Shown here: positions 8,801 to 57,098 of the stretch, one piece after another
How the letters are laid out: every line of letters starts with the position of its first letter
Numbering within the stretch: the first letter of the stretch is position 1
Source: an uncultured Ectothiorhodospiraceae bacterium
Lineage (GTDB): Bacteria > Pseudomonadota > Gammaproteobacteria > J044
Direction: 5' to 3'
NCBI GenBank assembly: GCA_964641615.1
Contig: CAZXNH010000006.1
Location: forward strand, 14,381 to 78,380
DNA: 64,000 bases
Made by a program: the position numbers and the translations under genes
Notes under the pieces: generated by a model
Seen by the model: only the letters and a program-made list of their open reading frames with translations
Database searches by the model: none
Told to the model about the DNA's origin: nothing

Positions 8801-9301
8801 GGCGATCTCCTTAAATTAGGGATGGCAGATTTCGCAAAAAACCTTATCGACAGTCTTTCTGTCGACATCAAGATCTGAATTGCATCCAGATCCAAAATCT
8901 TTGCTGATAACACTATGGTTATTCAGCCGGACATGAAGTCTAGGCGCCAAACCTGTATCCGAGAACCCTACCCATGGGGTGTTTGCACCACCCCTGTATA
9001 TCTCTTTTGGGATATGCGGACTCAGTCAGGCTAGAAACAAAGGCCAAGACCTGAAACGGCCGCAGAGAATATCACAGTTTTATGATAATGCAATAAAAAC
9101 AGTATATTAGAGTATTTTACTCGGTTATTATGACTCCCTGGAACGTCGCTTTATTACAGATTTATGTATTGAAAACCAAAAACTTAGTCTTACATATGCG
9201 ATAGCTCAATTTTGCGCGTTACAATATGAAGAGTTGTACATCTCAATCATTATCACCACCAGATATTGTGGTGTGTACTTCTGGGAGTTGTTGGGTTAAA
9301 G

Positions 9302-40128: not shown

Positions 40129-40187
40129 ATCAATAGTCTAAACCATGCCCGGCCAAATTATTTGATTGGCTACTGAATGCGATATCC

Positions 40188-40622
40188 AGGGATTACCAAC
40201 AGTTTGACATTAATAAATATCATGCCTTTGTTAGATACTGGCATCCACTCGGTGAAAAATTTGCGCTTGGTTTGCGTGGAGACGGCCAGAAACTTTCTGA
40301 TGGTCCTGCAACATTTTACGAGTACCCATTCGTCGAATTACGGGCTATCTCGATTATGAGTTACCAGGGAGAAGAGGTCCTGGTCGGTGAGGCAGAACTT
40401 CGCTGGGATGTAAATAGTCGCTGGAGCCTGGTGGGTTTCGGTGGTGCTGGACAAACATCAGGTGGAATACGGGAGACGACTGAGGAAAACGTATACAGCA
40501 AGGGGATTGGTTTTCGTTACCTGGTTGCCCGCCGCTATGGCCTGAGAGTAGGTATAGATATCGCACGAGGCCCTGAAGATACAGCCTTTTATATCCAGGT
40601 GGATAATGCCTGGGCGCGGTAA
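40188..40622 (+). pseudogene. 5'-truncated remnant of a BamA/TamA (Omp85)-family outer-membrane protein
   Basis: Frame stays open upstream of the called TTG (RDYQQFDINKYHAFVRYWHPLGEKFALGLRGDG...) back to a TAG at 40134 with no in-frame ATG; C-terminal GIGFRYLVARRYGLRVGIDIARGPE barrel strands. Confidence 0.65.
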
Positions 40623-40789
40623 TACCTCGTTGCATTTAAAGCCATTGATTGAAGATGTCTGAACGAATGACAATCAAATAGAATTAAAAAGATAATATAC
40701 ATTAAATAACATGTATATCTTTTTGATTAATTTGTAATATTAGCCATATAAAAACCCATACCAATTAAGGAGTATCTACACTTAATAAC

Positions 40790-42001
40790 TCATGCCAACC
40801 AGTTAAGCATCTGAAAGATAAGCAATCCTACAGAGCTCAGCAGGCCTGCAACAGGTACCCAGAGCGGGTTATTCATCACGCCAGAAACTGCAGGGCTTCT
40901 CAATTTAATAGAAATGAGCGCTGCATTGACCAGTGAGAAGATGAGCAACAACAGAAAACTGGTTGTTTTAGCCAGCTCGACCAGGGGAACCCATAAAGCC
41001 AGGCACAGAATGATGGCAATGACGATCAAACTTGAGTTCACCGGTGTCTGAGTTTTCGCGTTTATCTTGGCAAATTTATGCCAGATCCAGCCTTTAGAAG
41101 CCATTCCATACAACATCCTCGATACCATGATCATCTGGATCAAAGCGCCATTGATGATGGCAAATATGCTGATCAGGGTAATCAGAGAAGGATTAATGTC
41201 CGAAGTAGCAACAATGACATCTGTAAGCGGCGCATGGCTACCGGCCAGGGTTTCCTGATCTAAGCTGAGAATCGCGACAAGGGCTACCAGAGAATAAAGG
41301 AAAGTAGCGATTACCAGGGACAGGATGATACCTGATGGTAGTGTTTTTGCTGGCTCTTTGACTTCCTCGGCGATGGTGACCATGTCTTCAAAGCCGGTAA
41401 ACGCGAAAAAAGCCAGGAATGCTCCAAGCATTATGCCCACCCATATACCTGAATCGCTGCCAGGCATTAGCAAAGGAAGACTAGCCGGAATGGTAAGCAG
41501 GGTGTCTTTTCCTGCCCAGATAACAAGCAAAAGCCCAAATATCTCAACCAAAGTCATAGTTGCTACAGCCGCAACTGATTGTGTAATACCCCAGATGGTG
41601 AGGATTCCCAGTACCAGTACCAGGGAGGAAATACTCAGCCATTCGGGCACAGACAGGAAAATGCTCAAATAGCCATGAAATCCACGAGCAATGGTTGCCG
41701 AGGTAACAATGCCAACAGAGGCCACCAGTAAACCAGTCAATCTAGTCAGGTTTAAGGTATGGAAGCCTTCATCTATGTAAGACGCGACACCAGAGGAATA
41801 GGAATATCGCGCGGATAGCTCGCTGTAGGTAAATGCACTTAATGCAGCAACAAGGGCCGCAATCAGAAAAGCGATGGGTGTATAGAGTCCGGCCTCAGCA
41901 GCGATCTGACCAATCAGAACATAGATACCGGCGCCCAGGATATTGCCGAGACCAAAAAACAATAAAAGGGGCAATCCGATTGAACGCTTTAATTCATTCA
42001 C
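40790..42001 (-). CDS. APC-family amino acid permease
   Basis: GNILGAGIY, FAFTGFE, AEEVKEP; about 12 transmembrane segments; GTG start. Confidence 0.9.
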   Translation of the reverse strand: MNELKRSIGLPLLLFFGLGNILGAGIYVLIGQIAAEAGLYTPIAFLIAALVAALSAFTYSELSARYSYSSGVASYIDEGFHTLNLTRLTGLLVASVGIVTSATIARGFHGYLSIFLSVPEWLSISSLVLVLGILTIWGITQSVAAVATMTLVEIFGLLLVIWAGKDTLLTIPASLPLLMPGSDSGIWVGIMLGAFLAFFAFTGFEDMVTIAEEVKEPAKTLPSGIILSLVIATFLYSLVALVAILSLDQETLAGSHAPLTDVIVATSDINPSLITLISIFAIINGALIQMIMVSRMLYGMASKGWIWHKFAKINAKTQTPVNSSLIVIAIILCLALWVPLVELAKTTSFLLLLIFSLVNAALISIKLRSPAVSGVMNNPLWVPVAGLLSSVGLLIFQMLNWLA

Positions 42002-42114
42002 GTTTATTCTGAACAGGTTGGCTGGTCAATAGACGCTAGATTATGCGCTACGCGCTCGGATGTCTGCTAAAAAGCGTTTTTGTGCTTAACCGATGCAATC
42101 TAAGCCCATCCATA

Positions 42115-42142
42115 TATGCGCATAATATATATTATGTTAAAT
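42115..42142 (+). other. dif site (XerC/XerD chromosome dimer resolution site)
   Basis: TATGCGCATAA-TATATA-TTATGTTAAAT versus E. coli dif GGTGCGCATAA-TGTATA-TTATGTTAAAT: XerD arm identical, 3 differences in 28 bp; intergenic. Confidence 0.9.
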
Positions 42143-42175
42143 CGTATTATTCAGGCTGCTGGGCATGGCTAGCAG

Positions 42176-42248
42176 TGTGGACGACCACGCAAAGTACTAA
42201 AGTTTTCCAAGCAAAGTACTTAATTTCCACACAAAGTACTAAATCTGT
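42176..42248 (+). repeat. Tn7-like transposon end: terminal TGTGGACG plus three tandem TnsB-binding-type repeats
   Basis: CAAAGTACT(A/T)AA cores at 42190, 42212 and 42232 (22- and 20-bp spacing); resembles Tn7 ends (TGTGGGCG...AAAGTCTTAAA); candidate 5-bp target duplication AGCAG at 42171-42175. Confidence 0.85.
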
Positions 42249-42275
42249 CGTACATTTAAACCCTCTTTCTTCGAG

Positions 42276-42806
42276 ATGATTGAAAATATGCTTGATGAGG
42301 TTCTTGATAAGCATAAGCAAGATTTTGATGAAATTAGGCGCTTATGCTTGCTGTGTCATGGCCTAGATTTAACGAGTACACATTTATTCAATAGTCCTAG
42401 TTACCCTGAACCATCATCTAGAACTAGGTCAATGCTACACAGCATGCTATCCAGCTCTCTTTTAAATCTTGCTGTCTCAATCCGAATAAATATTTACCAG
42501 GGAGTTATAAATGATTATGACGCCCCCCTTGATCGTATGATTGCGAGTATTTATCAAGACAAAGAATTAATTGAGAAATCAGTAACCATTAAAGACGTTT
42601 GTGACAAGATTATTCATGCAGACACAATAACCAAACCTATTTTTCCCAATGATCAGATCGAACCCGATGTAAAAATCACGTTTCAATTCAAAGGAGTCCA
42701 TCGAAACAAAGCTTGGACATTAGATATTTGTTTAGATCTATTTGCTGAGGCGGTACTAAAACTACTAGATGAAATTGAGAAAACCGATGTTAATCCGTTA
42801 AAATAA
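42276..42806 (+). CDS. Hypothetical cargo protein (possible degenerate HEPN-like CDKIIH motif)
   Basis: 176-aa AT-rich ORF immediately inside the transposon end. Confidence 0.6.
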   Translation: MIENMLDEVLDKHKQDFDEIRRLCLLCHGLDLTSTHLFNSPSYPEPSSRTRSMLHSMLSSSLLNLAVSIRINIYQGVINDYDAPLDRMIASIYQDKELIEKSVTIKDVCDKIIHADTITKPIFPNDQIEPDVKITFQFKGVHRNKAWTLDICLDLFAEAVLKLLDEIEKTDVNPLK

Positions 42807-42849
42807 CATTATTACGGATTAGGTTTCTGCCCTATTTCGAGGTTCGACC

Positions 42850-43623
42850 ATGCCCAAATCTGGCCAAGCACGCGTTCCCACAGCTGAGCAGCAACGACAT
42901 CTCTTTGAAGTAATTCAGCATAATCGTCACCCTGAAAAGAACACGGCAATTATGCAGATCAGCTTTAAGCTGGGATTACGCGCCCAGGAGATCGCCCTGC
43001 TCCAAATCAAGGAAGTGGCGCAGCTGAATTCAACAGGTACCGGATTCAAGCTACATGAAGTTATGAGCCTCCCTGCTGCCTACACCAAGGGTGCTGATGC
43101 CATTCAGCGATCCAAGAGTCAGTACCAAAGAACGACTATAAGTTTTGATATCGATAGCTTTAACAAGGTCGTCAAGCAGATCGAAAAGCTGGCCAGATCT
43201 TGTGCAGATGTGAATCCAGCAGATTTCTATCCGCCTGTTAAAAAGCACAAAGGTAAATCAAGAGATTTACCGATGGTTGATGATCAGCTACGTAGAGCTT
43301 TAGTCAATTACATCAGATTGAGAATTGCTAACGATGTAATCCTCAAACCCTCCTCCCCTCTTTTTGTTACTCAGAAAGGTGGTCCTTACTCTCCTAACAC
43401 ATTACAAGAGCATATGGCTTTGATGCTTCGCGACTGGGCCGGTATTGAGAAAGCCAGTTCACACAGTGGCCGGCGCTCGCTAATTACGAATATCATCCAT
43501 AAGCAGAAAAAATCCGTGAAAATAGCCCAGAAGATTGCTGGCCACGTTAATCCCTCGACGACGCTGATATATGAAGAGCCTCCAGAAGAAGTCTTAGAAG
43601 GGGCACTAAAAAATTTAGATTAG
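42850..43623 (+). CDS. Tyrosine recombinase (catalytic domain only)
   Basis: GLRAQEI (R), SHSGRRS (HxxR), AGH, TTLIY (Y); no N-terminal core-binding domain apparent. Confidence 0.9.
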   Translation: MPKSGQARVPTAEQQRHLFEVIQHNRHPEKNTAIMQISFKLGLRAQEIALLQIKEVAQLNSTGTGFKLHEVMSLPAAYTKGADAIQRSKSQYQRTTISFDIDSFNKVVKQIEKLARSCADVNPADFYPPVKKHKGKSRDLPMVDDQLRRALVNYIRLRIANDVILKPSSPLFVTQKGGPYSPNTLQEHMALMLRDWAGIEKASSHSGRRSLITNIIHKQKKSVKIAQKIAGHVNPSTTLIYEEPPEEVLEGALKNLD

Positions 43624-43715
43624 ACCATTTCCAGCCAAAAGTTGACAATGAGCCAATCGAACTGTCACAAAATTCCTACCTCAAAGGGCGATGTGAATAA
43701 GAGGCCAAATGCAAC

Positions 43716-44828
43716 CTATAAAGATTGAAGCACGCCAAGCGCTCCAGATACAGATGAGCAAACTGCACATGAATATTTCTTATCATATCCGGTAGCTTTC
43801 TGTGTAATCAAATGAGCCAACCTCTTCTCGGTGAAAAACGCATCACAGTAAGGAAGCGCTGATGCGGCGTGTCTAATATCGTGAAGATCATTATCTTGGT
43901 ATTTTTGGCTTTTGTCCCACCGGATCGACGCATGCAGCCCTGAAATTACAACAAATGTTGGAAAGTAGCTCTTTGCCTTATTCTGTTTGAATAAATTGTA
44001 AATTGCATAACGCAGCCACTTACCTGATTCAGAATTTATCTTTTCTTCCTCTGAGATAGTTTTTCCAGTTTCTGCCATATACATATCTTCCATACATTTA
44101 GCAATAATATCTCCATATCCATCTAATGACCCGGCAAGCTCACTAAGAAACATTTTCTTAAATGAGTTATTCTCATGCTCGTGATTAAACTTACCTTCGT
44201 TGAGCTTTTCAGAAATTCCAGGCATATTCAATGAAGAAATATCGCCATTTTCACTGATAATATTGATTATATCCGATAAAGATATATTCCACATTTGATC
44301 GATAAACGCCTTTTGGATCACCTTGTCCGTCTCTGGCTCAATGTTTTTATTTGAGGGGGTAACAAAACCCATATTGTATGCCAGCTTAGTCCAAGCCATA
44401 TCACGACAGTCATAGACGCTTTTTCCTGTACTAGAGTACAGAAAATATTTTATTTCTAACTCCAGCCTTTCCTCAAAATTGATTAAAGAAACCCCGCAAG
44501 AAAGCTTATCTATTAACTGAACAGTTTGATTTAAGGTTTCTGGATCGGATTGCTTAATAACTTCTAGTAAAACATCTTGGCTAATTGGAAATATAAGTCG
44601 ATTTTCTTCCGACATCTGCATGATTTCTTTATAAAACTCTTGCTCTAAGACACTCCTAGAGCGGCCTAAAACAATATCTCTAACGATCAACCAGAATTTC
44701 GTGTCAAAATACACGACCTTTTTCGCATTAACCGCTCGACTGAGATCGATACATTTTGATCGGATGTACTGTTCTACACTTATCTCCGGGCTCTTGATAT
44801 GGTGATCAAATGTAAATACGTAATCCAT
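43716..44828 (-). CDS. Hypothetical protein with PIN-like nuclease motifs
   Basis: VVYFDTKFW, PISQDVLLE, NDLHDIRHAASALPYCDAFFTEKRL follow the PIN acidic-residue pattern; ATG at 44828 lies 7 bp after the HEPN gene stop. Confidence 0.55.
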   Translation of the reverse strand: MDYVFTFDHHIKSPEISVEQYIRSKCIDLSRAVNAKKVVYFDTKFWLIVRDIVLGRSRSVLEQEFYKEIMQMSEENRLIFPISQDVLLEVIKQSDPETLNQTVQLIDKLSCGVSLINFEERLELEIKYFLYSSTGKSVYDCRDMAWTKLAYNMGFVTPSNKNIEPETDKVIQKAFIDQMWNISLSDIINIISENGDISSLNMPGISEKLNEGKFNHEHENNSFKKMFLSELAGSLDGYGDIIAKCMEDMYMAETGKTISEEEKINSESGKWLRYAIYNLFKQNKAKSYFPTFVVISGLHASIRWDKSQKYQDNDLHDIRHAASALPYCDAFFTEKRLAHLITQKATGYDKKYSCAVCSSVSGALGVLQSL

Positions 44829-44835
44829 AACAATA

Positions 44836-46413
44836 TCAACCTTTCCGCTTCCACTGATCATCCCACGTATCAAGGAACATTGGAGCAGTTATCTTGCCTG
44901 GATCACGACTCTCGGATCGACGCTTTTCTTCCACATGGATGGCAAGTGAAAGGTAAATAATTGCTGATCTCGCGAGCTTTACTTGACGGAGTGTTTTTCT
45001 TACCAGATCATCAACAGAAATGTCGAATATTCCCGTCTTTGGAGTTTCCATGCGATTGGGCGATACGGCTCTATAAAAGCCATCATGAACAGATACAAAC
45101 TTGTGCTCCAAATGATTTCTTAATTCATATAAATCCTTAGAGTCCGGCTCTGTCGACTCTCGAAAAGAACTTTCAAAAATATCCTTTGACAACCAGAACA
45201 AACCGCGTAACGGCCAGTTTTTAAGGGTGTTAAGGGCGGGATGGAGGTCTCTTTTTGAAGTTAACCAAACATTTCGGAAGTTCACATGCCTTTCCGAATG
45301 TTTCATGTCCAGATAAACGTTGAGCAAAAATGCAAGCTTGTCAAAAACGGCATAAGCCCCGCGAAATGCCATTTTAATGCGTTCGACAGCAAAACCATGT
45401 GCGGGATAGTCAAGCGTATTATAGAGTAGAACTTTTCTATCTGAAAAATGCACACCCTCGTAGACTAACCCTTCATATAATGCATAGCGTGCCGAGCAAA
45501 ATTCCTGTTTGATTAAATTGAAGTAATGAATTACTACTGGGAGGTCCGGCCCGTCATCAATATGTATTGTTAATGATGGAAGCGTCAGTATATCTTGCGC
45601 CGCAATAGGATACGGACCAATATCGTTGAGAGAGTTTAGAAACAGGCGATTTCCAAGACACCATTGCCGATATTCTCGCTCTTTCTTTCCCCTTCCCATA
45701 GGATGATTTTCAAAATCCGTATTTGCGGATATGTTGGGAATATCATAGTGGGACCAAATCGCGCCCATCTTCCTTGAAAACTCTTCAAGTATATTGGCCT
45801 GATAGAAGCTATCAAAAATTGCATCTTCGTCGCACGCTTCGCCAAAAGAGCCAAAGGCGGCCATCATAAGAACTGCTTCGTGCCCTGGATCATAATGCGC
45901 CCCCGCATAGTGGCCAAGACCAAAACCACGATTACCGCATGCCATTGCAAATTTAGGGACTGCGGCTATTGCTCGATCCCAATATTCAATCGCCTCGATA
46001 AAGCGACCAATATGGTTTAGCGCGTTACCCAAATTAGTGTATATTTGTGCTCTCTCCAGTGCTGGCAACCCTGGAAAAGCCTCATGACTCAAAGCCTTAC
46101 GCAGTTCTAGTAACTCTTGGTCAAAAACCTCGCTTTTCCATACCCATTCTTTGTTTTCTCCTGAAAGCTGGTATCTTGCTGACCATATATTTGCGCGAAA
46201 ATAATGCGCGCGGCAGGCATGATAATCTGAAACTCCACCCGCAATGATCCTATCTATAAGACTTTCGGCATAATCAAGCCCTTCTAGAGATTTCACGTCG
46301 CCAGAAATATCAACAATTTTAGCCGCCAACTGCATCGCCTCTTGCTCAGATAAATCCGAAACAACAGTGCTCATTAGTGAAGATAAAGTTATTTCATGCT
46401 CTGCATTTCTCAT
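44836..46413 (-). CDS. LA2681-family HEPN-domain protein with N-terminal TPR-like repeats
   Basis: YTNLGNALNHIGRFIEAIEYWDRAI (TPR-like); FNLIKQEFCSARY, DYP, NWPLRGLFWLSKD; HEPN RxxxxH motif RNHLEH; ATG at 46413 preferred to TTG at 46527. Confidence 0.8.
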   Translation of the reverse strand: MRNAEHEITLSSLMSTVVSDLSEQEAMQLAAKIVDISGDVKSLEGLDYAESLIDRIIAGGVSDYHACRAHYFRANIWSARYQLSGENKEWVWKSEVFDQELLELRKALSHEAFPGLPALERAQIYTNLGNALNHIGRFIEAIEYWDRAIAAVPKFAMACGNRGFGLGHYAGAHYDPGHEAVLMMAAFGSFGEACDEDAIFDSFYQANILEEFSRKMGAIWSHYDIPNISANTDFENHPMGRGKKEREYRQWCLGNRLFLNSLNDIGPYPIAAQDILTLPSLTIHIDDGPDLPVVIHYFNLIKQEFCSARYALYEGLVYEGVHFSDRKVLLYNTLDYPAHGFAVERIKMAFRGAYAVFDKLAFLLNVYLDMKHSERHVNFRNVWLTSKRDLHPALNTLKNWPLRGLFWLSKDIFESSFRESTEPDSKDLYELRNHLEHKFVSVHDGFYRAVSPNRMETPKTGIFDISVDDLVRKTLRQVKLARSAIIYLSLAIHVEEKRRSESRDPGKITAPMFLDTWDDQWKRKG

Positions 46414-46542
46414 TATTGGATTACTAGAAACAGTATAATTAACTCGCTGTGTGTTACTTCTGCCTCTCTGGTTATCTGCCAACAGAGGAGTCTCTGAATT
46501 TCCGAAAGCAGAAAATTGAAGGGACAATTTTCCATGGTATAT

Positions 46543-48423
46543 CTAATCCAGTAGATGAATATTTTCTGCTTCAAACAAACCTTTGGCTGCAATAGCTCTT
46601 TGCATGTTCTCCGGGTCATCCGTAAAGACCATAACCACAAGATCAGAACGTGCACGAGAACAGCACACGTAGAAAAGACGTCTCGTACGATCTATGACTG
46701 AATCTTTTCCGGAGGCAATGTTATCCTCATCAGTATCGGAAAGAGGTGTAACTCCGAAATACTTACCATACGAATAACCAGGTAACTGTCGTTCTTTGTC
46801 ATCTACTACAACTAAGACTTTGTCGAACTCGGCTCCTTTTATGCCCTGTTGTGTTGCAAATGGTGACAGTTTTTCAATGTAGAGACGATACCCCCATAGC
46901 TCAGTCGCCTCACATTGCATGAATCTTAAAGCTGCATTAATGGGATCAGGATCGACAACAGGTTCTGCCCCTATAAAATCCTCAATTAGTTGTAGATAAC
47001 GGTCATCCAAAGTATACATTCGCTTATCCCTAAGCAACTTCACCACATCACCAATATGGACTCTACTTTCTAGACCCAGCATTTCATCGAGAGTTTGTAT
47101 ATCATGTTGCAGCTCATGCAAAACATTGGAAGTATTCACGACAGTAAGACCATCAGATTGCAGTTTTTGGCAATATTTTCTAAGCAGACGCATAACGTCA
47201 AAGTGACGGTTTTCTCGATGTGCTAGTACCAATGGCAATATGAATGTTAGGAAAGGTCGCAACACCCAAGCTGTTCCATCAATAACACCAGAGCTCAAAC
47301 TTTCTGTTGATTTGTCATTTAGTGCTGAATATAGGTTTGGGAAGCCGAGCCTTGTGGCAGACACTCGGTGGACGAGGACAAGCAGGCGTAATGTTTCTTC
47401 GTCTTCATCCTCTAACCAATTATTGTCATCATCTACTTCAGACAACCAACGCCGAGCTGCGTCGAGGCGCTCTTGACGCCGATCATCATCCGGCATGATC
47501 AGAACACGTGCTGTTCCTTCTATTGCTACTAACTCACCATTCTCTTGCTGGTGGCGACCTCGGGTTTGCACTAGACCATCATCTTCTGCCCTAATGCGAT
47601 TGATAACTCGCAATACACTTTGGGGGCATCTAAAGTTTTCTGGCTTCTCAAGAAGCCGCCACCCTTCTTCGATTGGAATCGGACCGGCACCCTGCATGTA
47701 AATTTTTTGAACGGGATCGCCAAAAAATCCAACACAGAAATCGTTCTGAGTTTCATTTGCAACCGTACGTAAAGCCTCCACGAATTTAGGGGCAGTATCC
47801 TGGCTCTCATCTACAAAGATTACAGGATAGCACCGAGCTATTACACGGCGCATCAATAGCTGCTCTCGTATAATGGTTGGACCGATTTTCAGTACATCGC
47901 TGTGTCCTAGTATCCCATTGGGATAATCACTTCCAGTACCATATATAAAATATTTTACGCTATCTATTTGTACCAGTTGACGTTGATACCGGGCAATGTC
48001 TTCAGCAGCACGCTCTTTTGTTGTTTGACGAGTTCGTTTGTTATCTAGTTTTTCCTGAGCTTCCGCTATTTTGTCGTTTAGACGTCTACACACCCATTCC
48101 TTAATGTTGTTCTGAAAAGGCTTGATGTTTTCCCAAAGAAAGCTGTGAAAAGTGGAAACATGATATAGCGGGTCGGTGCCAACATCAGAACGAATTTCAT
48201 TGACAGCAACTTCGGTAAAAGTAATGCAGGCAATCTTTTGACCAGCTCGACGCAAAATTGAGCCCTGATCCTGTTCTAGATATGCCAGTGCTTTCACTAA
48301 GGAAGTTGTTTTTCCGGACCCTGCTCCTGCCACCATAACAAAATGACGGCTTCCAGCCGCACTTAAGCGATCACGTAGCTCTATGTCCGTATCTGTATCG
48401 GGTTTTCCTATCCGGCTCGTCAT
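46543..48423 (-). CDS. gajB: UvrD-like helicase, Gabija GajB-like
   Basis: AGAGSGKTT, VDESQD, FGDPVQKIY, NFRC, KGAEFD, LFYVCCSRA; 4-bp overlap with the upstream OLD gene. Confidence 0.85.
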   Translation of the reverse strand: MTSRIGKPDTDTDIELRDRLSAAGSRHFVMVAGAGSGKTTSLVKALAYLEQDQGSILRRAGQKIACITFTEVAVNEIRSDVGTDPLYHVSTFHSFLWENIKPFQNNIKEWVCRRLNDKIAEAQEKLDNKRTRQTTKERAAEDIARYQRQLVQIDSVKYFIYGTGSDYPNGILGHSDVLKIGPTIIREQLLMRRVIARCYPVIFVDESQDTAPKFVEALRTVANETQNDFCVGFFGDPVQKIYMQGAGPIPIEEGWRLLEKPENFRCPQSVLRVINRIRAEDDGLVQTRGRHQQENGELVAIEGTARVLIMPDDDRRQERLDAARRWLSEVDDDNNWLEDEDEETLRLLVLVHRVSATRLGFPNLYSALNDKSTESLSSGVIDGTAWVLRPFLTFILPLVLAHRENRHFDVMRLLRKYCQKLQSDGLTVVNTSNVLHELQHDIQTLDEMLGLESRVHIGDVVKLLRDKRMYTLDDRYLQLIEDFIGAEPVVDPDPINAALRFMQCEATELWGYRLYIEKLSPFATQQGIKGAEFDKVLVVVDDKERQLPGYSYGKYFGVTPLSDTDEDNIASGKDSVIDRTRRLFYVCCSRARSDLVVMVFTDDPENMQRAIAAKGLFEAENIHLLD

Positions 48424-50663
48424 GCCACCTTATTTCCTTGCTTGTCGCCATCACCTTCATCATCAACTTCCGAAACGCCAAGCGTCGTTTCCAGCCATTG
48501 CAAACCTTCTTCGATATATTGTGGGACAGACCATACTGTAGGGTTTTTGGTCAGCAAGGCCAATGCAAAGTCAGTCTTCTTAAAGCTGTCTTTATGTATC
48601 TTGTTATGAAGCCGTAATGCTAGGTCGGCCACATCCGCTGCCCCGGGTATTCTAAGCTTTAAATCTCGATTATCGTATTGCTGAGTCCAATCTAGGTTCT
48701 CGAAAGCAAACGCTGCTTCAAGAGTCCGCCCGGCTCGGTTAACCGTAGCACCATTCCAGTTCAGCTCAACATTACAGGGATAAGTCACTCGTACAGCGCC
48801 AAGGCCGTTAGCACCAGGCGGTAGCTCTTTTGCATCTGGTGGAAGATCGAGTAGTTCGTCGATCTTTTCGCATCCTGGAAGCCACTGGATAAGCATTTGG
48901 TTGGATGTTAATGCTTCGGGCATCTCCGGAGTACAGGTCTTTTTCTTTCTACGCGTAGTGTTATTTTCGTCTATTTCCTTGGCATCCCTTGCCTCCAGAG
49001 CGTCATCTTCCTCATCAGTTTCTCCGGGCACTGCTTCTGTGAAATATACGCTGTCGAGATCAGTGATGATCAGTGTAGTTATTCCAAGGTATTCAATCAA
49101 AGTACGAAATTGATGGCCGAATGCTCCACCAATCTCAAGGACGCTAAGGTAACTTGATCGTAGACCAGGCGCTGCTTTCAGAATCATTTGTGGCATAAGG
49201 AGTCGTTCGACATTGCCTTCAACAAGTACCGCAGCGTCTGCAAAGAATAGGTCGCAGTGTGTGAGCTTGAGATAACGTTCCAAAAAGTCTCTGCTTGGAT
49301 TTGCCGTCTTCTGATAGAACTCTGACAAATTCAATACCTGGGAGGTTTGTTCCACCCCAGTTTTTTCTCGCCGGAAATACCTAATTGACTTGAAGCCACG
49401 CTCGTACAAGATGTGGGGCGAGTGAGTGGTTAGAATAAGCTGCGTTCGAAACGTCTCTGAATCATCTGCTTCTTCACGAAGTATATCAAGCACCTTGTTC
49501 ACGAATACTTGTTGTAGCTGCGCATGCAAATGTGCCTCAGGCTCTTCAACAAAAACAAGATGAAGAGGTGGGCGGTTGTCGTCGATGGCCATCCACTGAG
49601 CATTTAAGTCTAGCAACTCTACTACCATATAAATCAGGTTTTTAAAGCCGAGACCGTTATACTTATCGGGTAGCGTAAGCGCGTCATTTCCATCGTGGAG
49701 AGCATAATGTACGTGTGCTCCGTCTTGACTATTCATAACCGCAGCCGGATTTAGCGCTGACTTGATCAACAGGCGAGGGTTTGCAAAACCTGGGTATCCA
49801 AGCTGTTCCAGTCGTTTGAGCGTTTCTGCAAAGACCTGCGCTAAGTGTTGGTTCAAGAGGTCTTCCGATACAGCTAGAGCTCTTATAGCGTTGTAATCTT
49901 CTCCATGCTGTTCAAGATTGCGCGTATAGTATCGACTTAGATGGCGCGAAAGCTCTTCTGTACGGCTGCCTCCGGAACTGTCTGACAGATGTCGCTGCGC
50001 GTGCAAGAAATCTACCTTCAACAAAGAATTAACAATATCTTTGCCAGTACGACCATGCTCTTTAAGAAATTCCTGTGGTTCGTAACCTTCTTTCGGATCT
50101 AAATTATCATCAAATTGACCCTCATCAAGAACGTAGTATTTGAACTCATACTCATGGTGTAATTCTGTTTCCAGAAATTCTCGAAGCGTTCTTGGCGGAG
50201 CTATATATAGCTCTCCATATTCTTCGACAGGGACATCTGCAGACAGTTGCTGAGCTTGTGCATATCGCTCCCGAAAGCGAGCGAGTGTTTCGTCCTGATT
50301 TCGTGGTGCGAAAGTGATCTTGATGCCGACATGGGTTCCCTGCCAATCAAGTCGCGGTAGAAGATCAATCACACGGTGAAGGTCTTCCTCTTCTACAGCG
50401 AACCACAGTTCGATAGCCATTTCAGGAAGAGCAGCACCTTCTTCTTTGTTAGCAAAGGATTCTACCTCCGCCCAGCAACATGCACTAATATCATGGAATG
50501 AAAAGCGATCACGAGTACCCGAGAGAAACAAATGCATAGCTTGTGCAACTGAAGTCTTACCGCTGTTGTTAGCTCCCACGAAGATCGAAATATCCTTGTC
50601 CAATCCAATAGACACGTTGGACAACCGACGAAAGTTACTTAATTTAACTCTGCTTAAATACAT
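48420..50663 (-). CDS. gajA: OLD-family ABC ATPase-TOPRIM nuclease, Gabija GajA-like
   Basis: GANNSGKTS, EEPEAHLH, TTHSPH, FFADAAVLVEGNVE, ITDLD. Confidence 0.88.
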   Translation of the reverse strand: MYLSRVKLSNFRRLSNVSIGLDKDISIFVGANNSGKTSVAQAMHLFLSGTRDRFSFHDISACCWAEVESFANKEEGAALPEMAIELWFAVEEEDLHRVIDLLPRLDWQGTHVGIKITFAPRNQDETLARFRERYAQAQQLSADVPVEEYGELYIAPPRTLREFLETELHHEYEFKYYVLDEGQFDDNLDPKEGYEPQEFLKEHGRTGKDIVNSLLKVDFLHAQRHLSDSSGGSRTEELSRHLSRYYTRNLEQHGEDYNAIRALAVSEDLLNQHLAQVFAETLKRLEQLGYPGFANPRLLIKSALNPAAVMNSQDGAHVHYALHDGNDALTLPDKYNGLGFKNLIYMVVELLDLNAQWMAIDDNRPPLHLVFVEEPEAHLHAQLQQVFVNKVLDILREEADDSETFRTQLILTTHSPHILYERGFKSIRYFRREKTGVEQTSQVLNLSEFYQKTANPSRDFLERYLKLTHCDLFFADAAVLVEGNVERLLMPQMILKAAPGLRSSYLSVLEIGGAFGHQFRTLIEYLGITTLIITDLDSVYFTEAVPGETDEEDDALEARDAKEIDENNTTRRKKKTCTPEMPEALTSNQMLIQWLPGCEKIDELLDLPPDAKELPPGANGLGAVRVTYPCNVELNWNGATVNRAGRTLEAAFAFENLDWTQQYDNRDLKLRIPGAADVADLALRLHNKIHKDSFKKTDFALALLTKNPTVWSVPQYIEEGLQWLETTLGVSEVDDEGDGDKQGNKVA

Positions 50664-50777
50664 TTAATGTCCCAATCTCCTTTCAGCATTATATAAAAAA
50701 GTGACTTCGTTCTATGTCCGTTTTGAGTCTAATAAAAACACATTGCTGAGCATCCACTTTGGGGCGAATGCAGACAT

Positions 50778-51512
50778 TTAATGAAAATCCACCCCTTCCA
50801 GGAAATGTCCCCCGTCGATCGTGAGTACATTGGTGTAGATCTCGGTGCTATCCATCGACTTGTGCCCCAGAAGTTGACTGACATATTTGAGCGGCCTTCC
50901 ATGTAGCAGCAGATGTATGGCAAACGAATGCCTGAAAGTATGACTACTGATGGAAAAAGGTGCACCCCCTACCCGCTCCACCAATGAACTGATATGACGA
51001 TTTACGGTCTGACGCGCCATCGGGAAGATGCGCTCCGTCTTTCTAAAGTTCCCTGCATAGAGATAACTCTGAATACGATCCTGCAGCATCAGATCCATGA
51101 TCGGCACATAACGCTTGGGTGAACGCTGCAGGGCCGCCTTTCTAGGGCGCCCAGGACGTTGTTTCAGCGTCTTTAAGACCACACCGTAGTCATATCCATC
51201 ATCGATGAAGCTCGACGGCGTCAGCGCCAGTATTTCGGAGATACGCGCCCCGGTGGTCCACATCAGGTCCAGGATCAGCCGATACGTCGGGTGTTTCTCC
51301 GCATCCAGCAATGCCAGCACTTCGGGCTTGAGCAGATAAGTCGGCATGTCATCGATGGTGTCTAACACGGTCTGGCGTTTGGCCACCAGCCGATCCCAGT
51401 CGATATCGATCGTGCGAATGGGAAATGTTACCGAGGGCTCGATACGCGGCTCGAACAGACGCCTGGGCCGCCTAGCTGGAAATAGGTTGTCTGAAGAAGG
51501 TATTTGTACCAT
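50778..51512 (-). CDS. ResD-like tyrosine recombinase (plasmid resolvase family)
   Basis: PTYLLKPEVLALL and WTTGARISEILAL match F-plasmid ResD-type motifs; HTFRHSFA, LLGH, STEIY; divergent from tnsA. Confidence 0.85.
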   Translation of the reverse strand: MVQIPSSDNLFPARRPRRLFEPRIEPSVTFPIRTIDIDWDRLVAKRQTVLDTIDDMPTYLLKPEVLALLDAEKHPTYRLILDLMWTTGARISEILALTPSSFIDDGYDYGVVLKTLKQRPGRPRKAALQRSPKRYVPIMDLMLQDRIQSYLYAGNFRKTERIFPMARQTVNRHISSLVERVGGAPFSISSHTFRHSFAIHLLLHGRPLKYVSQLLGHKSMDSTEIYTNVLTIDGGHFLEGVDFH

Positions 51513-51721
51513 TTGCCTTGTACCTTTGGTGCATATTTAGCATAATTATAGACAGTAAAAGCCACTCCTACTGCCAATAATATATACGAAAAGCAAGCAA
51601 AAGTAGCGTTTTTACCCGAATGATCCAAAATATCTGAAAATGGTGCAAAATAATGTAGCCTTTTGTTTTTCAGCGTCTATACTCCATCGGTCCTAGCCTT
51701 CGCATTTTTTGGAGGTAAGCC

Positions 51722-52435
51722 ATGAACACGGACCGTCGGCAACACGCCGTTCTCTTAAACCACCTGGCCTCAGTCACGGCCGACACCCTGGTGCCGCGTC
51801 AGCACCCAACACCGATGAGTCTGCAGGTCAGTAGGAATTTTTTTCAGCAGCATCTGATCAAGCACCCCCATATCTCCGATTTCCATTCCCTGCCGAAATA
51901 CCTGCACGCTGGCCTGCTTGAAGCCGACCCAGCCGTCTCGAGCTTCGTCCCGCAACCCTTTTTGCTCAGGATCGGTAGGCGGCGCTATACACCTGATTGC
52001 TATGTCGTGGCGGACCACAGCCCACGACGCGTCATAGAACTCAAACCTCGAGGAGAAATGGACGAGGCACTCAAGGGACCGCTGCAAGCCTTTTTTGCCC
52101 AGCACAATATGCGCTTTGAAGTGATCAGCAATGAATCGGTGCTCGAACGTCGCATAGAGGCTCAGAACTGGCTGGAGATCGTGCGCATCCTGTACCTGGG
52201 GCATGCTATGGATACGCAGGGGGCAGAAAACATCCTTCTGGATCGTTTTGCATCAGTGCCTGAACAGGAACTGGGGAGCCTCATCGACCCAGGCGATCGC
52301 GATGCGACCTATCTCACTGAAATTGCCCTCTTCCGCCTGCTCCACCGAGGCGTTATCCGCGCCGATCTGGCGGACCAGTGGCTCGATTACGAGACGAAAT
52401 TTTGGATGAGTGACCATGTGGCTCAGATGGCATGA
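51722..52435 (+). CDS. tnsA: TnsA-like PD-(D/E)xK endonuclease
   Basis: LLEADPAV..F.PQP, YTPD, IELKP; C-terminal winged-helix-like region; GGAGG RBS. Confidence 0.82.
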   Translation: MNTDRRQHAVLLNHLASVTADTLVPRQHPTPMSLQVSRNFFQQHLIKHPHISDFHSLPKYLHAGLLEADPAVSSFVPQPFLLRIGRRRYTPDCYVVADHSPRRVIELKPRGEMDEALKGPLQAFFAQHNMRFEVISNESVLERRIEAQNWLEIVRILYLGHAMDTQGAENILLDRFASVPEQELGSLIDPGDRDATYLTEIALFRLLHRGVIRADLADQWLDYETKFWMSDHVAQMA

Positions 52436-54305
52436 ACGGCTAGCACATGAGCCCCATCTGGGCGAGTTTACGAACTGGCCAGAGATCCCAGTCGATGAGG
52501 TGCCTAATAATAAGCGCCAAAAATATATGCGCAATCGGCATATCATCGCCGGCGCACTCTCAGGCCAGCCACTCAAACAGGCCGCCAAAGCCAATGGCGT
52601 CAGCCCGGGGTTGGTAACCCAGCTACTCAACCGTTGCCTGGGGGGCGATGGTTCCTGCCCCCCTGCTCTCACCCATGGGCTAATTCCGTATGCACAAACC
52701 AGCCCGGGGCGACGCAAACACCCCCTCCCCACCCTGACTGCCCCCTCGGGTGCGCGTTATGCCTTTCTGGAATTACTAGAAGTTGTACCTGGGCTCAAGA
52801 AAGGCCTGGATCAGGTCATTCTGAGCAAACTCGAAGATCAACCGACGGCACAACGCCTGACACCACGGGCATTTCATGGCGCATTTAAGCTCCTACTCGC
52901 CGAAGCCCACTGGCCCACGGATCGTTATCCATTTACTGAGCCAAGCATTGCTTATGAATCAGTACGTCGTTATCTCCGTGACCGGGCCCAGACACTTGAT
53001 GCTGAGCGCCAGATGCCCAAACGAAGATCCGAATTGACACAAGGTATGTTCATACAAAGTCAGCACTCTGTATTAGGCAAGATCCAACTGGATGAGCATC
53101 TCCTTGATGTGAGAAAGCATGTACAACTCCTACTCGACGAGCAATTTGCGCGGATTCCGATTGCTCGGGTCAGCGTGTTGGTCATGGTAGAAGTTGAATG
53201 CAGCTGCATTCTGGGGTTTTACGTCGCACTGACAAGCCATCCAGATCGGCTGGATTTACTTAATCTAATCGATCTCTGTATCAACCCTTGGCAGCCAATG
53301 ACCTTAACCACCCCAGGGCTGAGTTATCTCAAAGGGGCAATGTTCCCAAGCAGTCTCTCAGATGACCTGCCGATTACCTTCGGAACTGTCCAACTTGATA
53401 ACGCCATGATGCATCGGGCGCGTGCCGTCAAAGAAGTATTCTGCGATCAACTGGGCGCCACGTTGAACTACGGTTTCCCAGCCATGCCCAAGATTCGCGC
53501 CCTGGTTGAATCCGTGTTCCGTTACATTAATGAGCATTGCACGCATCAATTTGCCTCAACCACCGGTTCGCATCCCAAGGACCCCATCAGGGAATCTAAA
53601 AAAAACCACAAAAATATTCCCGTCATCAGTTTGCGTACCTTGGAAGAAGCCCTCAGCGTAATCTTGAGCGAATACAATGCCAGACCAAGGGCTGAGTTAG
53701 GTAACGCTACCCCACTGGAAGCATTCCGCCGGCTGAGTCAGGCCCACTATGTACGTCATATTCCCCCAGATTTTGCACAATCCTGGCAACCGTTTATGGG
53801 GAAAAAGGTTGTACCTCTTAAATGGTATCGCCACGAGAAACGTGGCCCGTGTGTGAACTTTTTGTACCTGCGCTACCAGGGACATGGTTTGATCAATGTA
53901 CAAGGTCACAAGAAGAGGGTCTTGATCCAGTACGATCGCAGGGATATTCGCACCATTCACGCTTATACCCTGGAGGGAGATGACCTGGGAGAATTGCATG
54001 CACCGAAAACCTGGCAACGCTTTGCACACAGCGTTTTAACGAGAAAGGTCATCTACAAAGAGCTAAAAGCCGGTCGCTTGCAAATGCGTGATCCTTTAGG
54101 CGGTTATTTTAGAAACCTAATTGCTGATAAGGATACACCAAAGCACGCCTTACAGATAATACGAATCTATAAGGAATATACCCAGAATGAACAGAAGCCA
54201 CTTAATCTTGGCCACCTTACCAGAGATAACGCGATTATCGAGTCCGGTTTTAAGCATCAATCGGTTTCATGGAGTACAGATACAGCAAATCGGAGGAAGT
54301 CATGA
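52416..54305 (+). CDS. tnsB: TnsB-like DDE transposase
   Basis: IQLDEH, ILGFY, QLDNAMMH, LVESVFR (D-D-E), Mu-transposase C-terminal beta domain (YDRRDIRTI). Confidence 0.88.
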   Translation: MWLRWHERLAHEPHLGEFTNWPEIPVDEVPNNKRQKYMRNRHIIAGALSGQPLKQAAKANGVSPGLVTQLLNRCLGGDGSCPPALTHGLIPYAQTSPGRRKHPLPTLTAPSGARYAFLELLEVVPGLKKGLDQVILSKLEDQPTAQRLTPRAFHGAFKLLLAEAHWPTDRYPFTEPSIAYESVRRYLRDRAQTLDAERQMPKRRSELTQGMFIQSQHSVLGKIQLDEHLLDVRKHVQLLLDEQFARIPIARVSVLVMVEVECSCILGFYVALTSHPDRLDLLNLIDLCINPWQPMTLTTPGLSYLKGAMFPSSLSDDLPITFGTVQLDNAMMHRARAVKEVFCDQLGATLNYGFPAMPKIRALVESVFRYINEHCTHQFASTTGSHPKDPIRESKKNHKNIPVISLRTLEEALSVILSEYNARPRAELGNATPLEAFRRLSQAHYVRHIPPDFAQSWQPFMGKKVVPLKWYRHEKRGPCVNFLYLRYQGHGLINVQGHKKRVLIQYDRRDIRTIHAYTLEGDDLGELHAPKTWQRFAHSVLTRKVIYKELKAGRLQMRDPLGGYFRNLIADKDTPKHALQIIRIYKEYTQNEQKPLNLGHLTRDNAIIESGFKHQSVSWSTDTANRRKS

Positions 54306-55267
54306 TGAGCAATACGGAGCACAGTCATTCGGCCAGTATTTATGATGATCATCCTATTTTTAATCCACTAAAGTTAAGGATAACAACACCGGCAGTTGAG
54401 CAGTTAAAAGAGGATATCCATCGTTGGGTTTGGACGGGCGTAACAGGCGCAATATTATCGGGAACGGCTCGAGTTGGAAAAACGACGGCAATTGAGATGC
54501 TGTGCGATCAGATTTGTACGCGAGGTAACAAGCAGCTTCCCTGCTTTTATGTATCCAACTCAGACCGAGATCAAAAAACGATAGCATCAATCTTCCGCAA
54601 TCTATGCTGGAACTCTAACCTGAAGGTTAATAGAGCAGATAATGCAGATCACATGTCTGACCGGTTTGTACATTTTGTGGTTGACCAGGCGGCTGAAGCA
54701 AAATGTCCACATGTGGTGATTATAGTTGATGAGATGCAGCGATTATTACCCAAACAATTCAATGCGTTCGCAGAGATCTACGATAAACTAAGTTTATTTA
54801 AAATTGCTTCTACGACCTTGTTTATAGGGAATGACCCCGAATATAGGGATTTACTAAAGCAAGTCCAGTCAACAAAGTATGCACATATCCGTGGCCGCTT
54901 TTTTACTCAAGCTGCAGTATTTAAAGGCCTGACTTCGGCTAAAGAGGTTGAATTTTGCCTAAAACAATATGATCAGCTGCGTTTTCCTGAAGATGGAGAT
55001 ACTTATACGGAATTCTTTTTGCCCGATGCCGTTCATCAGGGTTGGCAGTTATCATCGCTGAGTCACAGGCTGTGGAGGGTATTTCGAGAATATCAAAAAA
55101 TCTACAACTTCGAATCTTGGGGTATGCAGTACTTCACGGCAACAATCAGTACTTTATTGGCAGATTATTTAACACGATATGGTGTTGAAGATATTCCAGA
55201 TCAGATAATCCGTGAGTCTATAACGCTTTCTGGACTCATTAGTTCATCAATACTTATAGACTCATGA
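54302..55267 (+). CDS. tnsC: TnsC/TniB-like AAA+ ATPase
   Basis: GTARVGKT Walker A, IIVDEMQ Walker B; ATGA overlaps with both tnsB and tnsD. Confidence 0.88.
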   Translation: MMSNTEHSHSASIYDDHPIFNPLKLRITTPAVEQLKEDIHRWVWTGVTGAILSGTARVGKTTAIEMLCDQICTRGNKQLPCFYVSNSDRDQKTIASIFRNLCWNSNLKVNRADNADHMSDRFVHFVVDQAAEAKCPHVVIIVDEMQRLLPKQFNAFAEIYDKLSLFKIASTTLFIGNDPEYRDLLKQVQSTKYAHIRGRFFTQAAVFKGLTSAKEVEFCLKQYDQLRFPEDGDTYTEFFLPDAVHQGWQLSSLSHRLWRVFREYQKIYNFESWGMQYFTATISTLLADYLTRYGVEDIPDQIIRESITLSGLISSSILIDS

Positions 55268-56868
55268 AATGGATTCACCTTAATAAAGGGCTCTATTTTG
55301 AACGCCCTTATGAAAGCGAATATTCAACTATACGTCGTTTTTTACTCGCAAACCCCGGTATCTCCATGGCTATGTTGTCCAGAATTCTGAAAAATCAAAA
55401 TTCTGGAAGTGGGTTTTCTACGCGGATGCAATCATTTCTAGGTAGAAGTGAGGCCAACTTTCCATATTTAAATATTGATAGTACTTATAAAAGACAGTGC
55501 CCAGAATGTGCCAAGGAATTTTATCACAGTGATGTGTATGCGCTACCCTGGGTATTGCGATGTCCTATTCATCATTGTGAATTTACTGCCGTGTGTCCAA
55601 CCTGTAACAAGGAGTGGCCGAATAAAAAAATGATAGAAAAACGAAGCTGCGCAACTTGTGGCAGGCCACTGATTAAGGACATACCTAGTTCATCAATACT
55701 GCAGGATAAGGGTAAATACCTACCAATAAAAATATTATATGAACTCATACAGTCACCGAATCATAAAAAGTATATTCGTAGTACGAAATATTGGCTTCGG
55801 GACGAAATAGATATTTCTAGCCCACTATATCCTTCATTTAAATTGCATGGTGTTATGAATCAAGATCATGAGATTCGCAAGGCAAATGATATACACATCA
55901 TTCATTTGTATGAGAAATCATTCAAGCTACTTACAATGATTGAATATAAGAGGCAAAGGCGTGAGCTTCTGATGCCATTTTGGGATGATAATTACCAATA
56001 TCGCAATCACCGATTTCAATATCAGTATGAGACTATTCAGGAAATACTTGAATGGATAGACAAGAAAAGTACAAAAGGACATAATTGCTATGTTGCAAAT
56101 CATGAGTATTTAACTGCTCAGCATTTGGCTATATCACCGAAACCTTGCCCATTTTGCATTGCATTAAGCATATGGTTGTTTTTCATAGTAACCAATGACT
56201 TTAATAAAAAACTATGGTCTGTTGCTGACAAATACCCATTTTGCTATTTTCATGGCTTAGATTCTTTTGATAATGTACATGAAGAAAATATAGTAGAGGT
56301 TAGTGGGCTAAAGACGATAAATAATTATTCCTATAAGGTTGGTTATTCATTATCGTTATTGCCTGACCATGAGTTTTCTAAATGGCTCTATAAGCGAAGG
56401 CTAAAAATATTTTTTATTAAAACGTTTTCTTTTATCAAATCATTAATTGAGGCAATGGATAGAGAATCGCTCATCAATCAGCCATTGGTTATTGGCAAAC
56501 CACAGATTGAAAATAAGTATTATTTATCGGATCACCATGAAGCATTCGTTGAAGATAACAAGCTCACACTTGTTTATACGTATGAAAACCCCTTTGATGA
56601 ATTATCAAATCTGAAATTCGATGGCGATTATCAATGTCAGGATTATCATCAACACCTTGGTGAGATAAAATATCTGTCATGCTGCCATTTCGTAGAAACA
56701 ATAAATAATACACGCTTCACCTACGAAGAGTTTTCTGCCCTCTATCAAAAGCTATGTCAACATGCCCCATATCTTAGGTGGAAATGCAGCCCATGGTACT
56801 CATCAAAACACAGAGAAAATACATTTCAGCACCTTCAAGAAGCCATGGAATCAATGCCATTATTTTAA
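55264..56868 (+). CDS. tnsD: TniQ/TnsD target selector (534 aa, TnsD length)
   Basis: RPYESEYS N-terminus; Zn ligands CPEC, CPIH, CPTC, CATC; long C-terminal extension. Confidence 0.82.
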   Translation: MKWIHLNKGLYFERPYESEYSTIRRFLLANPGISMAMLSRILKNQNSGSGFSTRMQSFLGRSEANFPYLNIDSTYKRQCPECAKEFYHSDVYALPWVLRCPIHHCEFTAVCPTCNKEWPNKKMIEKRSCATCGRPLIKDIPSSSILQDKGKYLPIKILYELIQSPNHKKYIRSTKYWLRDEIDISSPLYPSFKLHGVMNQDHEIRKANDIHIIHLYEKSFKLLTMIEYKRQRRELLMPFWDDNYQYRNHRFQYQYETIQEILEWIDKKSTKGHNCYVANHEYLTAQHLAISPKPCPFCIALSIWLFFIVTNDFNKKLWSVADKYPFCYFHGLDSFDNVHEENIVEVSGLKTINNYSYKVGYSLSLLPDHEFSKWLYKRRLKIFFIKTFSFIKSLIEAMDRESLINQPLVIGKPQIENKYYLSDHHEAFVEDNKLTLVYTYENPFDELSNLKFDGDYQCQDYHQHLGEIKYLSCCHFVETINNTRFTYEEFSALYQKLCQHAPYLRWKCSPWYSSKHRENTFQHLQEAMESMPLF

Positions 56869-57098
56869 CCATGATGACATTTTATGTATTGGTTATAGAG
56901 TTCGAAGCACTACCGTTCGCCTAGATGAATCTTTTCGGTTTTCGGCGCATTTATCATGTCGCGACCTTGATCATCGCAGCTGGCTGCCAGGCGGCATTTG
57001 GAAGGCAGATTAAATGAATGGGCGCGCAGGATGGCAAAGAGATATCAAATAATGTATCGATTTACGCCTGCACTGTTATCCGAACAACCTAAATGTGA

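Follow-up and report, generated by a model that had tools for sequence, protein, structure and literature searches.

Can the dif site of the chromosome serve as the attachment site of a Tn7-like transposon? The dif site is short and non-coding, occurs once per chromosome, is nearly invariant in Proteobacteria and is found in most bacteria. The question is raised by a 64-kb stretch of DNA from an uncultured Ectothiorhodospiraceae bacterium (the window; positions are counted from its first letter), where one end of an element with a tnsA-tnsB-tnsC-tnsD operon lies just outside dif. The original prediction, made from the sequence alone, took dif to be the attachment site and the 534-aa TnsD of the element to be its reader. 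Comparison of the window with related loci strongly supports the first part, with five right ends at 35–37 bp from dif, but does not show the reader role of TnsD. At the junction, the window contains:

42115–42142, no strand: chromosomal dif, TATGCGCATAATATATATTATGTTAAAT, with the XerC arm TATGCGCATAA, the centre TATATA and the XerD arm TTATGTTAAAT
42143–42175, no strand: spacer from dif to the transposon end, 33 bp to the TGT and 35 bp to the conserved TGG block
42176–42246, + strand: right end of the Tn7-like element, with the terminus TG-TGGACGACCAC and three close-packed TnsB-type sites

The near-canonical dif proposed at 42115–42142 is confirmed: it is identical to E. coli dif at 25 of 28 positions, and no other dif-like 28-mer is present in the 64-kb window with up to eight mismatches allowed. 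Its XerD arm is the side turned toward the element. The FtsK-orienting polar sequences (KOPS) converge on the site. Left of dif, the KOPS motif GGGNAGGG occurs four times on the + strand and once on the − strand, and a relaxed form, GNGNAGGG, is distributed 15:1 between the + and − strands; right of the island formed by the element, GGGNAGGG is found three times on the − strand and never on the + strand. This convergence fits a genuine terminus dif, not a stray look-alike. KOPS-like motifs (12381–62949) change strand at the dif/island region, and the three located within the island (45690, 50967 and 52723) are all oriented toward dif. A separate observation concerns a 2-kb Logan contig from one sample (L011; window 40102–42142), which stops at the last base of dif and not at the transposon end; its breakpoint hints at strain heterogeneity from the dif edge on, for example through Xer-mediated events.

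The terminal sequence TGTGGACG begins at 42176 and leads into three direct repeats of the form CCAnnCAAAGTACTwAA (42185–42204, 42207–42226 and 42227–42246; spacing 22 and 20 bp), in agreement with the predicted 33-bp spacer, TGT-type terminus and set of three repeats. Exact CAAAGTACT cores occur three times in the 64 kb, all of them in these right-end repeats. Homologous right ends are present in three other loci (L044, L048 and L068), and in the six end copies compared the conserved block begins with TGG (42178 in the window). Because the two bases ahead of it vary across the copies, the true terminus may lie 2 nt inside the TGT proposed earlier. The repeats of the window can be assigned as TnsB sites of this Tns family, since the same motif builds a left end beside tnsD in Thiodiazotropha: locus L012 has four inverted motif copies (CAAAGTACTAAAG), 59–67 bp apart, approximately 0.9–1.1 kb downstream of tnsD. 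The end facing dif had also been described as the tnsA-proximal one. It does lie on the tnsA side, but tnsA is 9.5 kb off, with cargo and two recombinases in between; a right end directly upstream of tnsA was sought as well, and neither the window nor Thiodiazotropha has one.

The distance between the right end and dif is maintained across genomes. In all five right ends that are visible (window, L044, L048, L068 and L072) the end is turned to dif, and the TGG(A/T)C(G/A)AC block begins 35 bp (window and L048) or 37 bp (L044, L068 and L072) from the dif edge. The element is found on the XerD-arm side of dif in three genomes and on the XerC-arm side in two, at a similar distance. The spacer sequences and flanking genes are unrelated among the five loci, whose GC content ranges from 38 to 50%, and L072 displays a different repeat motif (ACATAACTCACTTATA). 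Since distance and right-end orientation stay constant while flanks, spacers, arm side and the motif of L072 vary, the family appears, on this comparison of sequences, to use dif as its attachment site.

L044, a Thioalkalispiraceae metagenome-assembled genome (MAG) with unrelated flanks, was the one match of a genome scan for an XerD arm followed by two sites within 35–65 bp, and it shows dif, a spacer, TGTGGTCGACCAC and three sites. Two tandem right ends are located beside its dif (3372–3704), approximately 265 bp apart, the inner copy starting with TTTGG; they could stem from insertion into a single site on more than one occasion and subsequent decay, or from a miniature derivative. When metagenomes were scanned with a pattern lacking dif, two genuine ends were returned, one from the L044 organism and one from a TARA scaffold (L048), among what was mostly tandem-repeat noise. 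The end in L048 also lies beside dif, with the opposite dif orientation. Both L068, an NCBI MAG, and L072 were reached via a TnsA homologue; L068 has the full architecture and carries a cyclic oligonucleotide-based anti-phage signalling system (CBASS) as cargo.

A shared spacing could also be a trace of ancestry, with one ancient insertion near dif inherited vertically and no active targeting involved. In its favour, the copies seen in this setting are all without a recognisable left end, the inner repeats of L068 are degenerate, and divergence among the Tns proteins is deep and star-like. Yet the spacers are fully randomised in sequence while keeping their length within 2 bp, opposite dif arms are occupied in different genomes with different host flanks, the repeat motif differs in L072, the ends of L044 stand in tandem, and homologues of TnsA span several gammaproteobacterial orders with GC contents of 38 to 64%. 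Such a history is, in our judgement, very improbable.

The transposition genes of the window are the following:

51722–52435, + strand: tnsA, 237 aa, with an AlphaFold2 fold match to Tn7 TnsA
52410–54305, + strand: tnsB, about 601–631 aa depending on the start codon
54269–55267, + strand: tnsC, AAA+ ATPase of 321–332 aa (Pfam AAA_22, E = 2e-11)
55264–56868, + strand: tnsD, 534 aa, with an N-terminal TniQ zinc-finger domain and an uncharacterised Cys-rich C-terminal region

All four are intact, overlapping open reading frames (ORFs; 51722–56868 in total) with the size and order of a Tn7-type operon, and tnsC keeps its place between tnsB and tnsD in all loci. What had been called a complete core is thus intact in its genes, but the element is one-ended in the window; the statement that tnsE and cas genes are absent agrees with our reading of the window, where none was seen. 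Sequence searches with TnsA, TnsB and TnsC fail to reach the solved TnsA, TnsB and TnsC, from which these Tns proteins are too diverged. The AlphaFold2 model of TnsA has a predicted local distance difference test (pLDDT) score of 94, and its top three matches in the PDB are all Tn7 TnsA (1t0f_B, 1t0f_A and 1f1z_A; E = 4e-6 to 8e-6, full length, probability 1.0), with weak Pfam and NCBIfam TnsA matches alongside. TnsB is without a match in the PDB sequence search and has a weak Pfam Mu-transpos_C match that falls short of the cut-off (E = 0.002); it shares 24–26% identity over 85–90% of its length with plasmid genes annotated as DDE/Mu-type transposases beside TnsA genes (best E = 4e-39). TnsD matches Pfam TniQ (E = 0.003) and, weakly, a PDB TnsD sequence, and the six best Foldseek matches of its AlphaFold2 model (pLDDT 80) are TniQ proteins, among them 8bd5_Q with probability 0.98, at weak E-values of 0.1–2. 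Together, the modelled TnsA and TniQ folds, the AAA+ TnsC and the putative DDE/Mu-type TnsB support a Tn7-type machinery.

The stretch between the right end and tnsA contains two tyrosine recombinases, each accompanied by a palindromic site:

42792–42820, no strand: 29-bp palindromic core-type site AATCCGTTAAAATAACATTATTACGGATT (7+15+7 bp), ending 29 bp upstream of the yrec257 start codon
42850–43623, + strand: Yrec257, a 257-aa tyrosine recombinase with the catalytic domain only (Pfam Phage_integrase), in which the R, HxxR, H and Y motifs are kept
50778–51512, − strand: Yrec244, a 244-aa Xer-like tyrosine recombinase (Pfam, NCBIfam) with intact catalytic motifs, divergent from tnsA
51621–51647, no strand: 27-bp palindromic site with the consensus TGCACCAAAATAnCnGnAAAnGGTGCA (6+15+6 bp; TGATCC...GGTGCA in the window), in the yrec244-tnsA intergenic region

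Neither recombinase has a core-binding domain, and the nearest resemblance of both is to Xer proteins: Xer-type NCBIfam models match Yrec257 far under their cut-offs, and the PDB sequence matches of Yrec244 are XerC-like, XerD and XerA. Both are apparently active. Yrec257 has 835 homologues. The 29-bp site is identical in L048 and L072 and shows one to three mismatches in L066, L067 and the Spongiibacter loci, and the 27-bp site is conserved in an alignment of seven intergenic regions, including that of L066, a locus without tns genes. The two palindromic sites could serve cargo exchange by recombination, or act as operators. All family members seen carry yrec244 approximately 200 bp from tnsA.

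The recombinases are much better conserved than the transposition proteins. Across loci of 38 to 64% GC, Yrec257 is 76–86% identical, also between genera (52–57% for L048), and Yrec244 is 61–81% identical in hosts of 42 to 64% GC, while identity amounts to 43–62% for TnsA, 37–53% for TnsB, 34–58% for TnsC and 27–34% for TnsD. A word-indexed search with TnsD found one relative, in Candidatus Thiodiazotropha taylori, and an exhaustive HMMER search found 354 representatives, all of them at most 33% identical; for TnsA, the family comprises 205 representatives. The Thiodiazotropha loci have the same core, with an integrase divergent from tnsABCD and cargo that differs by strain; their TnsA, TnsB, TnsC and TnsD are 53, 43, 40 and 32% identical to those of the window.

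Yrec257 is also found close to dif on its own. In Aurantivibrio, an island of Yrec257 (86% identical), cargo and Yrec246 begins 6 bp from dif and lacks both tns genes and a transposon end; such an end is therefore not universal in this neighbourhood. A yrec257 homologue in Simiduia lies 1.1 kb from an inverted dif, and in Spongiibacter Yrec257 is a fixed chromosomal gene approximately 0.8 kb from dif without Tn7 parts. In all, homologues located within about 1 kb of dif and lacking transposon parts were observed in L066, L067 and L076–L082. Such loci represent either domesticated remnants or an independent recombinase-bounded module that also rides in the transposon. A right-end relic beside dif was sought in Spongiibacter and rejected, the alignment score lying under the 95th percentile of shuffled sequences. 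In this genus the length of the sequence just past dif varies between strains, and filamentous or other small single-stranded DNA phages are integrated next to dif in some of them (L077, with Zot, a CRI replication protein and a gp8 coat protein; L082, with REP_ORF2-G2P).

These loci raise an alternative in which the link to dif belongs to the defence island bounded by Yrec257 and Yrec244. The island would integrate or persist beside dif in the manner of Xer-exploiting elements, carrying the Tn7-like parts only as passengers or relics. Besides the occurrences in Aurantivibrio, Simiduia and Spongiibacter, where Yrec257 and its palindromic site lie 6 bp to 1.1 kb from dif with neither end nor tns genes, it can draw on Thiodiazotropha, where strains sharing TnsD differ in cargo and integrase and breakpoints are located at the integrase gene. 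However, the Yrec257 site lies anywhere from 6 bp to 1.3 kb from dif, whereas the end keeps a constant 35–37 bp, and L044 has an end at dif with no yrec257 within 3.7 kb. These two results indicate that the transposon end is the part anchored to dif. Moreover, Yrec244 is held at a fixed distance from tnsA across hosts of widely differing GC content (42 to 64%), and an element integrated by Xer recombination would leave a second flanking site, whereas the window has a single dif-like site; a search for a second one at the far boundary found none. We consider this alternative unlikely.

What would then recognise dif? Equal distances on both sides of the site suggest a reader that is symmetric about the dif centre, which argues for a pseudo-symmetric reader: a recombinase dimer, XerCD on dif, or a protein that reads the palindromic core. 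We regard it as probable that the window element represents a divergent Tn7-like family in which a selector complex reads dif pseudo-symmetrically and TnsC positions TnsA and TnsB approximately 35 bp away. The family layout would run from the right end through a variable segment, Yrec257 with its site, defence cargo and Yrec244 with its site to tnsA-B-C-D, continuing beyond tnsD, as in one relative, with more cargo and then the left end. Once the target-selector complex had recognised dif pseudo-symmetrically, TnsC would measure the distance as in Tn7 and place the TnsA/TnsB transposase. Insertion would thus take place on either side of the 28-bp dif, some 35 bp beyond its edge and with the right end invariably closest to it, and the constant spacing would reflect active targeting. 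The candidate readers are TnsD on dif DNA, or TnsD docked on a tyrosine-recombinase dimer at dif. This dimer might be host XerCD or the Yrec proteins of the element, by analogy with TnsF-TniQ of Tn6022. The window copy, its left end lost, would now supply Gabija and HEPN defence genes beside the terminus.

In Tn7, TnsD binds glmS, and attTn7 has the right end facing the TnsD site. TnsD of the present family might likewise read dif alone, its Cys-rich C-terminal region binding the site directly and making a recombinase needless. It is the sole TniQ-family protein in the operon, and its 498–546 aa leave room for a DNA-binding region. Members of the TnsD family align over their whole length, their C-terminal halves share invariant Cys, His and Trp positions, the zinc motifs CxxC and CPIHH are conserved, and the geometry of the insertion (right end toward the site, approximately 35 bp) resembles attTn7. 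On the other hand, TnsD is only 27–31% identical between dif-adjacent elements though dif is nearly invariant, and Foldseek matched no solved DNA-binding fold to its C-terminal ~370 residues. Insertion on two sides would further need TnsD to bind the partly palindromic dif in both orientations, and it is the Xer-like recombinases encoded by the element, not TnsD, that are far better conserved. Direct reading by TnsD is possible but doubtful. In a different arrangement, which we put forward tentatively and by analogy, a Xer-type recombinase dimer on dif could provide the platform for TnsD and TnsC and so account for symmetric insertion at the two sides of dif, with the Yrec proteins and their palindromic sites additionally swapping defence cargo.

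Several results weigh against targeting of dif by the transposon. In no locus were both ends of one element seen, and neither a complete copy flanked by a 5-bp duplication beside dif nor an isogenic empty site was recovered; the window, L068 (to 5.7 kb past tnsD) and L072 all lack a left end. The right ends of the Thiodiazotropha, Halofilum, Marinobacter and L069/L070 loci lie beyond the 10-kb flank, with no dif within range, and these loci thus speak neither for the pattern nor against it. One of the five right ends (L044) came from a pattern that required dif. TnsD, at 27–34% identity between elements, is the least conserved component. Finally, Yrec257 adjoins dif in many genomes without any Tn7 part, and part of the association with dif could belong to the recombinase module and not to transposition.

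The left end of the window copy was sought in several ways. Inverted copies of the 9-, 12-, 18- or 20-mers of the repeat, or of the terminus, are found nowhere in the window, and local alignment of the region downstream of tnsD against the right end yielded nothing. L001, which extends 2.8 kb beyond the window, likewise has no left end. The operon is followed directly by a host gene:

56869–57098, no strand: junction of tnsD with a host ABC-2 transporter gene, 230 bp without end-like sequence

This junction recurs in all 13 metagenome contigs of the source organism that carry the window TnsD. Being one-ended, the window copy is probably a fixed, immobile island. Of the two multi-site ends with TG...CA termini of Tn7, close-packed on the right and spaced on the left, the window copy has the right one only, and the family displays the left one through the Thiodiazotropha relative.

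Elements that exploit Xer recombination, such as filamentous phages and islands, enter the chromosome when XerCD recombines them into dif itself, and a dif-like site then remains on each flank. The window element shares their residence at dif; unlike theirs, however, its dif is single, intact and separated from the transposon end by a spacer. The resemblance to Tn7 extends to the probably heteromeric transposase of TnsA and a putative TnsB, the AAA+ TnsC, the TniQ-family TnsD, the packed right-end repeats, the spaced left end (in a relative), the constant spacing and orientation relative to a conserved sequence of the chromosome, and the defence cargo. By contrast with Tn7, the site of the family is a 28-bp non-coding recombination site and does not mark where a gene or RNA gene ends, either side of it is used, and cargo lies between the right end and tnsA together with two built-in, conserved Xer-like recombinases. 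Attachment sites of Tn7-like TnsD/TniQ proteins include glmS, parE, comM, tRNA genes, ffs, guaC and rsmJ (PMC11014353), and full-text literature searches turned up no report of a Tn7-like element with TnsD that uses dif for attachment.

The closest precedent is the IS1202 family (ISAjo2-type), in which a TnsB-like DDE transposase with TGT...ACA ends hunts dif and, on plasmids, pdif in a fixed orientation; its authors propose an interaction with the Xer protein bound at the site (PMC10132070). IS1202-type elements are 1.5 kb long, encode one transposase without TnsA, TnsC or TniQ, and insert 5 bp from the XerC arm only (PMC10132070), whereas the window family carries tnsABCD and lies approximately 35 bp from dif (spacer 33–37 bp) at both arms. 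Tn6022 is another Tn7-like element allied with tyrosine-recombinase-type proteins. Its TnsF has 498 aa and combines a zinc finger, tandem core-binding domains and a dead, partial catalytic domain; it is encoded in an operon with tniQ and targets comM. This protein, derived from a tyrosine recombinase, binds the target and acts as selector via TniQ (PMC10293859). Some Tn6022 elements also have a XerC-like gene and a hybrid dif-like site (PMC11014353). Unlike TnsF, the Yrec proteins are 244–257 aa in length, consist of the catalytic domain only with its motifs intact, have palindromic sites of their own and are encoded outside the tnsD operon.

If the proposed targeting is correct, dif would represent a kind of attachment site new among Tn7-like elements, and the family would provide a natural case of protein-guided insertion beside a recombination site, possibly of use as a broad-host safe-harbour tool. 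It would then be of interest how insertion approximately 35 bp from dif coexists with dimer resolution by FtsK and XerCD, whether a dif-bound recombinase can replace the DNA-reading part of TnsD, extending the precedent of TnsF, and why defence islands with swappable cargo collect at the terminus in marine Gammaproteobacteria. Should a recombinase serve as the platform, the element would combine a transposon and a cassette platform at the replication terminus.

Relatives outside the chromosomal loci are remote or doubtful. Viral contigs contain no relatives of the TnsA alignment, and plasmids contain only remote Tn7-like TnsB genes at approximately 25% identity. A two-site DNA pattern gave 29 matches in viral contigs, all of them unrelated repeats or phage sequence. 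One contig of a viral collection (L032) has four CAAAGTACT-type sites at 8990–9060 and, adjoining them on the opposite strand, ORFs sized like tnsA, tnsB, tnsC and tniQ; it was rejected as a relative, having no detectable protein in common with the window. Two GC-rich metagenome contigs (L059 and L065) with CCACAAAGTACTAAA arrays in both orientations within 200 bp were also set aside: neither a terminal block nor dif is present, and the arrays are probably an unrelated repeat element.

Among Thiodiazotropha strains, loci of identical TnsD (L012, L013, L014 and L083–L085) have unlike integrases and cargo (Gabija versus SMC-like/DUF4062). The breakpoints among these strains lie approximately 1 kb upstream of tnsA or at the 3' end of the integrase gene. 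Fragments of a ParD antitoxin recur in Thiodiazotropha, both close to the left end and on the far left side of the island.

In the window, the 9.5 kb from the right end to tnsA comprise, in order, a 176-aa ORF, Yrec257, a 385-aa protein, a TPR-HEPN protein, GajB, GajA and Yrec244. The genes other than the recombinases are:

42276–42806, + strand: 176-aa ORF without a Pfam, PADLOC or NCBIfam match
43716–46527, − strand: a 385-aa protein with no family match and a 563-aa TPR/LA2681-like HEPN protein (Pfam), without a PADLOC match
46543–50663, − strand: Gabija anti-phage system (PADLOC, Pfam), with the GajB helicase at 46543–48423 and the GajA OLD-type ATPase/TOPRIM protein at 48420–50663

The segment between the right end and the recombinase site, occupied in the window by the 176-aa ORF, is variable, L048, L068 and L072 each differing from the window. 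The Gabija genes are recognised by PADLOC with E-values of 9e-226 for GajB and 2e-254 for GajA. The neighbouring 385-aa and TPR-HEPN proteins may form an uncharacterised defence pair.

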